Both the position numbers and the translations under genes were made by a program. A stretch of 33,125 bases of DNA from a virus. Taxonomy: Duplodnaviria > Heunggongvirae > Uroviricota > Caudoviricetes. Under the pieces are notes generated by a model that worked only from the letters and a program-made list of their open reading frames with translations, did not search any database and was not told where the DNA came from. The stretch lies in the IMG/VR virus record IMGVR_UViG_2718218402_000003; one strand, given 5' to 3'. Within the stretch, counting starts at the first letter, position 1; every line of letters begins with the position of its first letter. Positions 5,358 to 7,489 of the stretch are shown one piece after another.

Positions 5358-5570
5358 TCAAAGTGCCACTACATGAACAGCTGCAGGGCCTTTAGGTCCG
5401 TTCTCAATACCAAATTCGACTTCCTGATTCTCAGTTAACGTTTTGAAATCGTTGCTCTGAATAGCTGAGAAATGCACAAACACATCTTTGCTACCATCTT
5501 TCGGCGTGATGAAACCAAAACCTTTTTCAGGGTTAAACCATTTCACTAAACCAGTCATTTTGTTAGACAT
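5358..5570 (-). CDS. cspI: Cold-shock protein, CspA family (Qin prophage CspI-like)
   Basis: 70-aa [21 protein letters not shown]...; RNP1-like KGFGFI motif; long AT-rich 5' leader upstream. Confidence 0.85.
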
Positions 5571-5933
5571 CATTATTACCTTTTGAAGAAGTTAGCCCTT
5601 GGGCAGAATGGTCCGAAAAAAAATATCAGAGAGAAAAACCAACAAGGAAATCTCAAGAGGTACAAATAATAAAATTATAACAATGACTGCTTCAGATAAT
5701 TTTGTAACAAACCAGAACACCATTAACGCATGATTAACCAACCATAGCAAGGATTACTTTTGTAAAGAAAAACACACGAATGAAACAATAGCTTTATTTA
5801 TTAATAAAACGTGTCATTCTGTCTAATGACCTTTTATCTTACCCCTAAGATTTCAAGGATTTTGACTCATGGAAGAGTCCTTTTTATTTAAATTTCACAT
5901 TCAGCGCTAAAAATAATCCGATTTAATATTAAT

Positions 5934-6431
5934 CTACATCTGATATTTTTTATCTCTTAAAGATTCATAAATCCGTTGACAAGTCACTCCTGCGATGTAG
6001 CGTTTGTCAGCAATTTCAGCATAAAGCTGAGCTTCTGCTGCAATATCTCCGAGCATGTTGGTGAGCATTCCTTCGGCGGCTTTGGTTGTTTTGCCTCTGA
6101 CGGCAGCGGCAAGATTTGCGGTATGCTGCGCTGCGTCAAGGCGTATGGCATATTTTGTTGCTTCGGCACGCAGCTGGTTAACACTATCAGACAGATCAGC
6201 AGCCCTGGCAGAAATTTCAGCGGCTTTCTGTTGTGCATCTTTAACAGCCTCATCACGGGATATACTTCGCCCCTGTTCAATTATTCGAGCAGCAAATTGG
6301 ACATTTACCTCTTGAGATAATTCGGCAGCATCACGCTCCGCCCATTTTTTTTGCCATCCTCTGTCGCTCCAGACATTACCTACGACAAATCCTACCAACA
6401 CGAGCAAAATCACCGTGAATATCTGATTCAC
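5934..6431 (-). CDS. rzpQ: Rz-like i-spanin
   Basis: 165 aa with N-terminal TM helix and coiled-coil body; 4-nt overlap with the lysozyme gene. Confidence 0.7.
5984..6253 (-). CDS. rzoQ: Rz1-like o-spanin lipoprotein embedded out of frame within Rz
   Basis: Embedded frame with signal peptide plus lipobox (LTSC) and proline-rich mature part ([17 protein letters not shown]); start codon uncertain. Confidence 0.55.
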
Positions 6432-6961
6432 TGTTCTATCCCCCAGCAGGTTAATGCACTCTCCTGGTCACGACGAATAACCTGACCGTAACAATTATTT
6501 GAACGAATGCGGCAATCACGTCCACCGTCCTTTATCCACCAGCGAATCGCCTCGCATGCGCCTTTACGATCACCGGCATTAAGCCGCTTATAAAACGTCG
6601 ACGGAAAACACTTACCAGGGCCAATGTTATAGGGACAGAATGACGCGATACCGGCTTTCTGTGGCTCGGTCAGTGGAACTTTTATATTGCGCTCCACCCA
6701 TGCCAGCGCCTTATCACGCTCAATGGCGTTGACCTGGTCGCATTTTTCCTTCGACAGTTTCATATTGGGAAAAACGGTTTTTCCATCCACCACTGTGGCA
6801 CCCCGACAGATGGTCCATATGCCAGAACCATCGCGGTATGCCATTGTGTGGTTACCTTCTTTTTCGTCCAGAAACTGGTCAAGTATCTGAGGAGCAGATG
6901 CGCCAGCACCAATCAGCGCCAGAACGGCAGCCGACAGGCCGTATCTGATTTTTGTGTTCAT
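6428..6961 (-). CDS. rrrQ: Phage lysozyme (GH24 family) with SAR-type N-terminal signal-anchor
   Basis: 177 aa; hydrophobic Gly/Ala-rich N-terminus ([16 protein letters not shown]); resembles DLP12/Qin prophage lysozymes. Confidence 0.85.
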
Positions 6962-7269
6962 AGATATTTATGATGAGGACGCTCGTGCTTATTGGCAGGA
7001 TTTTCAATCTTAAAGGAGTACTGATGCTGCAGATAAGACTCAACTTTTTCTGACAATTTTTCTGCTACTTCCAGGAAGACTTGCCGGACGCTCATTCTGG
7101 CTGCTGCCTCATAAAACTCCAGCGCAGCTCCTTCAACACGGTCCATGGCGACATCCAGGCCAAAAATTTCACCGTCAAAGCGTTCTTTGTCCTGTAAGGC
7201 TACAGTTACCGTAACTTTATTCTCAAAATTACGGACTCCTTTCACAACCAGTTCATAGTCTTGAGTCAT
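6958..7269 (-). CDS. ydfR: DUF1327-family protein (YdfR-like)
   Basis: 103-aa ORF between holin and lysozyme, as in Qin. Confidence 0.6.
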   Translation of the reverse strand: MTQDYELVVKGVRNFENKVTVTVALQDKERFDGEIFGLDVAMDRVEGAALEFYEAAARMSVRQVFLEVAEKLSEKVESYLQHQYSFKIENPANKHERPHHKYL

Positions 7270-7273
7270 TGGA

Positions 7274-7489
7274 TTACTCTCCTCTCGCAGCCTTACGCCT
7301 GTCTTCTTTAATCTTGAAATAAAGATTTGTCAGATACGTCAGCATGCCAAATACCAGACTACCCAATACACCTATTGCCGCCCACTGTGAGGGCGTGACT
7401 TTATCGAGCAACTGTAAAAACCAGTAGCCAGCACTGCCTGCAGAGGTGCTGTAGGCGATGCCCGTTGTTAACTTATCCATGGATTTCAT
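7274..7489 (-). CDS. essQ: Class II holin (EssQ/EssD-like)
   Basis: 71 aa from ATG at 7489 ([13 protein letters not shown]...) preceded by GGAGGTGA Shine-Dalgarno; the track ORF is extended upstream. Confidence 0.8.

Follow-up and report, generated by a model that had tools for sequence, protein, structure and literature searches.

The interval from 7489 down to 5358 on the minus strand of the window, as we term the whole 33,125-nucleotide stretch of viral DNA analysed here, very probably represents the lysis module from the late operon of a lambdoid, Qin-like prophage, together with a cspI moron. Its gene content points to a pinholin/SAR-endolysin/two-component-spanin system of the phage 21/933W kind. 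The genes follow one another in the order pinholin, YdfR, the lysozyme RrrQ, the spanin-like RzpQ with a second spanin-like gene (RzoQ, or Rz1) embedded in it, and finally cspI. An initial annotation had placed a Qin-type lysis cassette with cspI in this interval: all of its features were recovered at their coordinates on the minus strand, and both order and sequence match Escherichia coli K-12 essQ-ydfR-rrrQ-rzpQ/rzoQ-cspI, with 94.6% nucleotide identity over window positions 4955-7518.

The cassette is an ordinary one. Since 2,093 of 5,426 complete E. coli genomes carry the same module at a coverage of at least 80% and with gene names attached, it is previously annotated and already known. 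No experimental work on this exact cassette was found, with rrrQ, essQ, rzpQ and ydfQ receiving only list-type mentions in the searchable literature. The reading frames, first described as uninterrupted, are indeed so: comparison with K-12 Qin and with phages mEp460_ev081 and Tritos revealed no frameshifts or truncations, and every ORF of the cassette has the same length in all four. Full coding capacity is thus kept, even inside a badly eroded prophage, by a module that is very common among E. coli prophages. The main value of the analysis lies in correct annotation, with little importance beyond that.

Holin and lysozyme

The first gene (7274..7489, minus strand) encodes a P21-type class II holin, or pinholin, of 71 amino acids, an assignment based on Pfam, a PHROG holin match, similarity to EssD and 933W S, and hydropathy. 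The match to PF04971 ('P21 holin S') has an E value of 2e-34 and a score of 117.6 bits (cut-off 26), and covers profile positions 1-63 of 64. The protein has the class II layout of two transmembrane domains (TMDs), of which the first is SAR-like, and a charged C-terminal tail. TMD1, at approximately residues 7-25, is weakly hydrophobic, with Gly, Ala, Ser or Thr at 12 of 19 positions and a summed hydropathy of +6.3; the corresponding sum for TMD2, at approximately residues 36-54, is +1.5. The start of the protein reads M1-K2-S3-M4, a dual-start motif that would yield a 71-residue antiholin and a 68-residue holin. The original description of a 71-residue holin with a good ribosome-binding site can therefore be sharpened to that of a dual-start pinholin, preceded by a strong Shine-Dalgarno sequence, GGAGGTGA, which was read directly at 7494..7501 (minus strand), 4 nt before the ATG. 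A scan of the sequence further upstream located a hairpin followed by a T-run (ACGCCAG..CTGGCGT, TTTTCTTTTT; 7590..7611, minus strand), placed between the holin and the upstream AraC-type gene, which resembles an intrinsic terminator and may function as one. A scan for sigma-70 sites gave no enrichment over shuffled sequences (18 sites against 15.5 +/- 3.9) and did not establish promoters for the lysis operon or for cspI.

The lysozyme gene rrrQ (6428..6961, minus strand) encodes a T4-type enzyme (PF00959) of 177 amino acids which is predicted to be a SAR endolysin, its signal-anchor-release segment comprising approximately residues 1-27 (nucleotides 6961..6881). The catalytic triad, E35-D44-T50, conforms to the pattern E-x8-D-x5-T and is aligned with that of R21. 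Full-length alignments link RrrQ to R21 (3hde) and RrrD (4zpu), the R21 match extending over residues 9-174 with an E value of 2e-16. With 933W R the identity is 89% across residues 1-177, the N-termini being nearly identical. The criterion for a SAR segment is the presence of two or three basic residues followed by about 20 mostly weakly hydrophobic residues (Gly, Ala, Ser, Thr), and the definitive test is release from the inner membrane by pinholin or depolarisation (PMC9239132). The N-terminus of RrrQ fits this wording, since K4 and R6 are followed by a weakly hydrophobic stretch whose best 19-mer contains 11 Gly, Ala, Ser or Thr residues. Along with the alignments to R21, RrrD and 933W R, this supports the signal-anchor-like character first attributed to the N-terminus, and RrrQ fits the description of a SAR endolysin.

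A cleavable signal peptide is also resembled. The N-terminus shows an n-h-c layout, with MNTKIRY as n-region, a short hydrophobic core (G8-A23, about 16 residues) ending A-S-A before Pro24, and a positive summed hydropathy for the best 19-mer, so that RrrQ might be an ordinary Sec-secreted enzyme, cleaved after A21-S22-A23 and active without control through membrane tethering. We consider this very unlikely. Pro24 directly follows the ASA sequence, and signal peptidase I of E. coli is known to be blocked by proline at position +1. The genetic pairing with a pinholin would moreover make little sense, since small holes would hold back a cytoplasmic enzyme and would be of no use to one already free. 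Finally, 933W R shares the ASAP motif yet has been handled experimentally as a SAR endolysin, with release stimulated by Mu releasin (PMC9239132).

For RrrQ as a SAR endolysin, conformational activation of the R21 type would be expected, because neither its SAR segment nor those of R21 and RrrD contain cysteine. Disulfide activation of the P1/Lyz103 type was considered and rejected on account of the same absence of cysteine; all eight cysteines of RrrQ lie in its body. The protein is 100% identical to K-12 RrrQ and to the Tritos endolysin. At the nucleotide level there are 18 differences from K-12, all 18 of them synonymous although only about a quarter of sites are synonymous, so that preservation by chance is very unlikely and rrrQ appears to be under purifying selection.

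The putative spanin pair and YdfR

The i-spanin-like gene rzpQ (5934..6431, minus strand) begins with a GTG that overlaps the lysozyme stop codon (GTGA). Its 165-residue product matches DUF2514 (PF10721, E 4e-38) and PHROG 312 ('Rz-like spanin', E 4e-58). An N-terminal TMD spans residues 4-22 (summed hydropathy -0.16), the remainder is predicted to be helical, and there is a single cysteine, Cys151. The single-sequence AF2 model, of low confidence (pLDDT 62) and used for helical content only, is helical throughout (residues 2-53, 59-110 and 117-164).

The +1 frame of rzpQ contains a second gene, rzoQ (5984..6238, minus strand; b4689 in K-12), which encodes an o-spanin-like lipoprotein of 84 amino acids and starts at the same ATG as is used for K-12 rzoQ. 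A PROSITE-type rule recognises the precursor: the lipobox is L-T-S-C, ending in Cys23, with Val rather than Asp at +2 and with R4 and K5 in the n-region. RzoQ is accordingly predicted by that rule to be lipidated and sorted to the outer membrane. The mature protein has 62 residues, nine of them Pro (14.5%), which agrees with the out-of-frame, Pro-rich lipoprotein originally reported, and it contains two further cysteines (C58 and C62, precursor numbering). These, together with C151 of RzpQ, are available for putative intermolecular disulfide bonds.

Open frames of this size do arise by chance, 14% of the sequences obtained by recoding Rz synonymously containing an alternative-frame ORF of at least 60 residues, and automatic annotation (PGAP) of a 100%-identical genome leaves the embedded frame without annotation. 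That Rz1 is no gene and is open merely by chance is nevertheless extremely improbable. A lipobox-bearing alternative-frame ORF emerged in just 115 of 20,000 recodings (0.6%), and RzoQ matches PHROG 11621 ('Rz-like spanin', E 2e-8). The frame and position are those typical of embedded o-spanins: RzoQ extends from 0.39 to 0.90 of the length of rzpQ, a figure that may be compared with the usual span from 0.4-0.5 L to 0.9-1 L (PMC6139136). K-12, Tritos and mEp460_ev081 all retain both the lipobox and the frame. Rz1 also shows the imprint of purifying selection in its own frame: divergence is halved within the Rz/Rz1 overlap, the substitutions there fall on third codon positions of Rz1, and in mature Rz1 five of the six substitutions relative to K-12 are synonymous in the Rz1 frame and non-synonymous in Rz. 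We regard the embedded frame as a genuine o-spanin-like gene, which PGAP misses.

The names Rz and Rz1, as first applied, hold for the architecture of the pair and not for the lambda sequence family. Membership of the lambda/P21-type families (PF03245, PF06085) was rejected, Pfam giving DUF2514 only for Rz and nothing for Rz1, and BLASTP comparison with DLP12 RzpD and RzoD yielded E values of 8.6 and 0.53, respectively, which amount to no detectable similarity. The putative spanin function of RzpQ and RzoQ rests on their architecture and PHROG annotation.

Between the holin and lysozyme genes lies ydfR (6958..7269, minus strand), which encodes 103 amino acids and whose assignment to DUF1327, made at the outset, is borne out by a Pfam match with E 1e-51. 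It starts 4 nt past the holin stop codon, and its own stop overlaps the lysozyme ATG (ATGA); in this variant ydfR would be translationally coupled to the endolysin gene. YdfR is an acidic, cytoplasmic domain of about 75 residues, lacks any hydrophobic segment and is restricted to Escherichia and Shigella. A sequence search of the PDB gave nothing at E values up to 1, NCBIfam and PADLOC gave no match, the PHROG matches are all of 'unknown function', and the literature on DUF1327 amounts to one incidental mention. AF2 modelling from an 18-sequence alignment suggested three strands and a helix, with one of the five models moderately confident (pLDDT 65.5).

In every locus examined, ydfR follows the pinholin stop codon at a distance of exactly 4 nt and comes before the SAR endolysin. 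This conserved position hints that YdfR might belong to pinholin/SAR-endolysin cassettes as an uncharacterised fourth component, a suggestion that we make tentatively and think rather improbable. [quoted passage not shown] The gene for YdfR/DUF1327 keeps the same place in thousands of lysis cassettes, and its role is the one question raised by the analysis.

The cspI moron and the eroded prophage

The moron gene cspI (5358..5570, minus strand) encodes a cold-shock protein (PF00313, E 2e-31) of 70 amino acids, or 71 if counted from the ATG at 5573. Between this gene and Rz there is a gap of 360 nt with a GC content of approximately 30%. A cspA-type thermoregulator mRNA element (Rfam RF01766), made up of a 5' leader of about 155 nt and the cspI coding region, is found at 5312..5728 on the same strand, matching with 110.1 bits (gathering score 78) and E 2e-28 over model positions 1-428 of 428. 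The long AT-rich leader originally noted ahead of cspI is borne out by this match. CspI is 100% identical to its K-12 counterpart, all nucleotide differences being synonymous. In a Tritos lysogen, expression of cspI was 93-fold above the local background (PMC9928086).

The surroundings of the cassette are much less well preserved. The prophage in the window is truncated at 4955, just past cspI, with everything beyond ynfN missing, and it contains an IS3, two copies of IS66 and another IS3-family element. Several of these insertions lie in the stretches that connect the early region, Q and the lysis genes. The IS3 separates Q from S, and an IS66 is located upstream of Q. Upstream of the holin are a low-GC AraC/YdeO-like regulator, a DUF523/DUF1722 gene and a lipocalin gene interrupted by IS3. 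None of the complete E. coli genomes has window positions 1-8500 contiguously, and a 35-mer across the junction at 4955 is absent from a collection with one genome per species.

Modelled on the characterised P21 system, lysis would run as follows. Late genes would be transcribed from a pR'-like promoter beside the Q antiterminator gene (11893..12285), and transcription would have to extend across morons and past the putative terminator at 7611..7590. The S gene would give rise to the 68-residue pinholin and 71-residue antiholin by way of the MKSM dual start. RrrQ would be exported by Sec and held inactive in the inner membrane by its weakly hydrophobic N-terminal SAR segment until, at a set time, the pinholin opened small holes and depolarised the membrane; the released enzyme would then refold in the periplasm and degrade the murein. 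RzpQ in the inner membrane and the lipoprotein RzoQ in the outer membrane would together span the periplasm and break open the outer membrane. YdfR would enter this scheme as a conserved small cytoplasmic protein produced between S and R and, here, translationally coupled to R, while cspI would be expressed separately from its own cold-regulated leader.

The initial annotation judged the module to look functional. As regards coding capacity this stands, near-identical or identical proteins being present in plaque-forming Tritos, but expression in place is doubtful in view of the truncation and the IS elements. Because the prophage is a truncated, IS-filled remnant, the cassette is probably silent where it lies unless Q is supplied. 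Taken further, the heavy degradation around it (IS3, two IS66, another IS3-family element, late genes cut at 4955) and the classification of K-12 Qin as cryptic could mean that the cassette itself is a decaying, non-functional remnant whose frames are intact merely for lack of time to break. This is highly improbable given that all 18 rrrQ differences and all cspI differences from K-12 are synonymous, that each ORF has the length of its intact homologues and that a plaque-forming phage, Tritos, uses the same proteins. The purifying selection may have acted inside active phages, and is no proof of use in the present host.

Retention for the benefit of the host, through controlled autolysis or the release of vesicles or biofilm matrix, would make the module something other than a mere leftover of a recent phage. 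Its presence, at no less than the coverage given above, in 2,093 of 5,426 genomes and its intactness here despite the loss of structural genes would suit such a role, and DLP12 lysis genes reportedly play a part in biofilm formation. We nonetheless think it unlikely: routine expression is opposed by the putative terminator just upstream and by the need for Q, and host-level selection leaves the same sequence pattern as frequent recombination with active phages bearing the same module.

Comparison with known lysis systems

The lambda Rz/Rz1 pair shares the architecture seen here, namely a type II inner-membrane protein and a +1-frame lipoprotein gene at approximately 0.4-0.9 of its length, as well as a Pro-rich mature o-spanin and periplasmic cysteines in both partners. 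There is, however, no sequence similarity, and the mature o-spanin of lambda has 40 residues, compared to 62 (14.5% Pro) in the window (PMC6139136).

Among pinholin systems, DLP12 EssD is 94% identical to the holin and likewise begins with the MKSM dual start, while R21 and RrrD share the E35-D44-T50 triad with RrrQ in an alignment spanning both SAR segment and body. Phage 21 and DLP12 differ from the window in that RrrQ has eight cysteines and matches R21 only at E 2e-16, in the presence here of YdfR between S and R, and in the spanin pair, which is of the DUF2514 type and has no detectable similarity to DLP12 RzpD/RzoD. In the Stx2 phage 933W, R is 89% identical over 177 residues, N-terminal segment included, and S is 80% identical. 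There is no ydfR in 933W, where R starts 4 nt after S, and an ant gene lies between R and a lambda-type Rz/Rz1 pair.

The lysis region of K-12 Qin (b1556-b1552 and b4689) has the same gene order, ORF lengths and overlaps. YdfR matches at 101 of 103 residues and RzoQ at 80 of 84; the holin differs at 6 of 71 positions and RzpQ at 17 of 165. Upstream of the holin, K-12 Qin carries ynfU/cspB/cspF whereas the window has the AraC/YdeO-like, DUF523/DUF1722 and IS3-split lipocalin genes, and the downstream break points of the two also differ.

The same order of five genes plus cspI is found in mEp460_ev081 (LR597641), which is 98.7% identical in nucleotide sequence and whose RzpQ and Rz1 proteins are 100% identical to those of the window, and in Tritos (OV696610, prophage 3 of LF82), which has an identical endolysin. 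In both phages the cassette resides in a complete genome with terminase, head and tail genes, whereas the late region of the window stops at 4955, and Tritos yields both plaques and virions (PMC9928086).

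Layout of the lysis genes and the holin

The whole 5358-7489 interval is encoded on the minus strand. It opens with a 71-residue holin ORF (7489..7274), its M-K-S-M start preceded at 7501..7494 by GGAGGTGA, the good Shine-Dalgarno sequence of the initial annotation. The 103-residue ydfR ORF (7269..6958) begins 4 nt past the holin stop, the ATG of the 177-residue lysozyme ORF rrrQ (6961..6428) overlaps the ydfR stop (ATGA) and, similarly, the GTG start of the 165-residue Rz ORF rzpQ (6431..5934) overlaps that of the lysozyme (GTGA). Pfam assigns these products to P21 holin S (E 2e-34), DUF1327 (E 1e-51), phage lysozyme (E 1e-23) and DUF2514 (E 4e-38), respectively, while the PHROGs labels for the first three are holin, unknown and endolysin. 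An 84-residue Rz1 ORF, rzoQ (6238..5984), lies within Rz in the +1 frame; both RzpQ (phrog_312, E 4e-58) and the embedded ORF (phrog_11621, E 2e-8) are labelled 'Rz-like spanin' by PHROGs.

The holin is 94% identical to EssD of DLP12 and 80% identical to S of 933W. TMD1 is weakly hydrophobic, TMD2 more strongly so, and the tail is charged; this is a predicted pinholin, the expected partner of a signal-arrest-release (SAR) endolysin. Pairs of this kind are commonly predicted in the lambdoid and Stx prophages of E. coli (PMC8136144).

Endolysin, spanins and YdfR

Residues 9-174 of RrrQ, the cassette lysozyme, align with the crystallised SAR endolysin R21 (3hde) and with DLP12 RrrD (4zpu), N-terminal segment included, and the catalytic triad, E35-D44-T50, is the same in all three. 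At the N-terminus K4 and R6 are followed by a weakly hydrophobic segment in which Gly, Ala, Ser and Thr make up 11 residues of the best 19-mer. The same segment resembles a cleavable signal peptide as well, with A-S-A at its end; the residue that follows, however, is Pro, which at the +1 position is known to block signal peptidase I. The signal-anchor-like N-terminus originally proposed is supported, and the published description of SAR domains fits it (PMC9239132). Furthermore, 933W R, which is 89% identical to RrrQ across all 177 residues and nearly unchanged at the N-terminus, has been handled experimentally as a SAR endolysin, its release being stimulated by Mu releasin (PMC9239132). Since the SAR segment of RrrQ is devoid of Cys, a thiol switch of the P1 type is excluded and activation is likely to proceed through R21-type refolding. 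The periplasmic body contains eight cysteines (C52, 74, 109, 118, 136, 150, 157 and 172), all of them conserved in 933W R.

The N-terminus of RzpQ carries a TMD (residues 4-22), and a low-confidence predicted model of the protein is all helical. The embedded Rz1 ORF conforms to the PROSITE-type lipoprotein rule, with Cys23, a basic n-region and Val at +2, this last residue leading us to expect sorting to the outer membrane. The predicted mature protein has 62 residues, including nine Pro and two further Cys, and the ORF spans 0.39-0.90 of Rz, a position which, in the +1 frame, is typical for embedded spanins (PMC6139136). A lipobox ORF arose in 115 of 20,000 synonymous recodings of Rz; divergence between the window and K-12 is halved within the overlap (10/255 nt inside, 20/243 nt outside); and five of the six substitutions across mature Rz1 are silent in Rz1 yet alter Rz. 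The recoding count and divergence pattern together indicate that the out-of-frame ORF is more than a chance occurrence. Placement in the Rz and Rz1 sequence families of lambda/P21 was rejected, there being no Pfam match and nothing from BLASTP comparison with RzpD and RzoD of DLP12. Judged from sequence, RzpQ/RzoQ would be a DUF2514-type spanin sharing the architecture of lambda/P21 Rz/Rz1. The embedded gene is annotated in K-12 as rzoQ and is absent from the PGAP annotation of an identical genome.

For YdfR, searches of sequence, structure and literature found no function. It belongs to a small family, with 257 clusters out of 5.8 billion sequences, in which some 75 conserved N-terminal residues are combined with variable C-terminal tails; the source names among the matches listed are all Escherichia or Shigella. 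In 12 of 12 loci, representing three subfamilies, ydfR is placed 4 nt past a 71-residue pinholin gene and followed by a 177-residue lysozyme gene. In 933W, S and R are also 4 nt apart but with no ydfR between them, so an RrrQ-type endolysin can do without YdfR. A few singleton database proteins contain PF04971 (holin) together with PF07041 (DUF1327) in a single polypeptide; these are probably read-through or frameshift artefacts rather than true fusions.

cspI and the surrounding prophage

Between Rz and cspI (5570..5358), which encodes a cold-shock domain (Pfam E 2e-31), lie 360 nt with a GC content of about 30%. A complete cspA thermoregulator is found by Rfam at 5728..5312 (110 bits; gathering score 78), so the long AT-rich leader reported earlier is the 5' UTR, about 155 nt in length, that csp genes usually have. 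In a lysogen of Tritos (OV696610, LF82 prophage 3), cspI is expressed 93-fold over local background (PMC9928086), marking it as a moron. Directly past it lies a ynfQ-like, Cys-rich ORF of 62 residues (5159..5347, minus strand; b4724 in K-12), missed by the ORF lister on account of its ATT start. The clean hairpin and T-run that follow (GGCTCCTTCGGGAGC-TTTTTT; 5130..5150, minus strand) probably end the cspI-ynfQ transcript.

Directly upstream of the holin, where K-12 has cspB/cspF, is an AraC-family regulator of low GC content (7680..8402, minus strand; 30-36%), whose best match, YdeO, scores 115 bits, far under the cut-off of 348. With its own predicted terminator, a hairpin with T-run at 7611..7590 (minus strand) before the holin, it looks like a regulatory moron. 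The Q antiterminator gene (11893..12285) is complete, with a terminator-like site downstream at 11794..11771. In the stretch from Q to the lysis genes an IS3 interrupts a lipocalin gene, and IS66 lies further upstream of Q. Altogether, 22 kb of prophage carry four IS copies (the lipocalin-gene IS3, two of the IS66 family and one of the IS3 family), the IS-bearing regions being 10.1-11.35 kb, 14815-17257, 27063-28372 and approximately 29.6-31.8 kb; the otherwise near-identical genome NZ_CP151038 lacks the second. A 1,210-residue ORF at 17330..20962 (minus strand) encodes a P-loop NTPase domain of YobI-like type (PF20693, E 8e-123) and gives a hit to PADLOC's 'Tmn' model for defence (E 1e-66), making it a candidate prophage-borne anti-phage defence gene.

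Homology to K-12, to a 100%-identical genome and to Qin-like prophages ends abruptly at 4955..4957, inside ynfN, with a 3-bp overlap. Joined there is the end of a CP4-like island (334..4823, plus strand) bearing DUF932, antirestriction, RadC/JAB, DUF5983 and DUF4942 genes. Neither the complete E. coli genomes nor the species-representative genomes contain this junction, which could reflect a rearrangement particular to the strain or a join made in assembly. The suggestion that the module looks functional holds for the coding sequence, which is intact; expression in place is doubtful, given the IS elements and the end of homology at 4955, and the cassette is stranded in an eroded prophage without downstream packaging or structural genes.

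Relatives of the cassette

Many E. coli chromosomes are 100% identical across 5300-7650, and this region is present at a coverage of at least 80% in 2,093 of 5,426 complete E. coli genomes, where the genes are named essD, ydfR, rrrQ, rzpQ and cspI. The cryptic K-12 prophage Qin has the same order, essQ-ydfR-rrrQ-rzpQ/rzoQ-cspI, with a 94.6% match to window positions 4955-7518. Phage mEp460_ev081 (LR597641; 98.7%) and Tritos (94.5%), the latter plaque-forming and with imaged virions (PMC9928086), have the same cassette with cspI behind it. Every ORF has the same length in the window, in K-12 and in both phages, and the refuting check suggested at the outset, for frameshifts against intact homologues, came out negative. 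Phage mEp460_ev081 shares RzpQ and the Rz1 frame at 100% identity, and the endolysin is likewise 100% identical in both Tritos and K-12; all 18 nucleotide differences between the window and K-12 rrrQ are synonymous, which speaks clearly for purifying selection. The original observation of an intact Qin-type cassette is thereby confirmed and its interpretation supported: this is an already known, textbook module, annotated previously and present in thousands of genomes.
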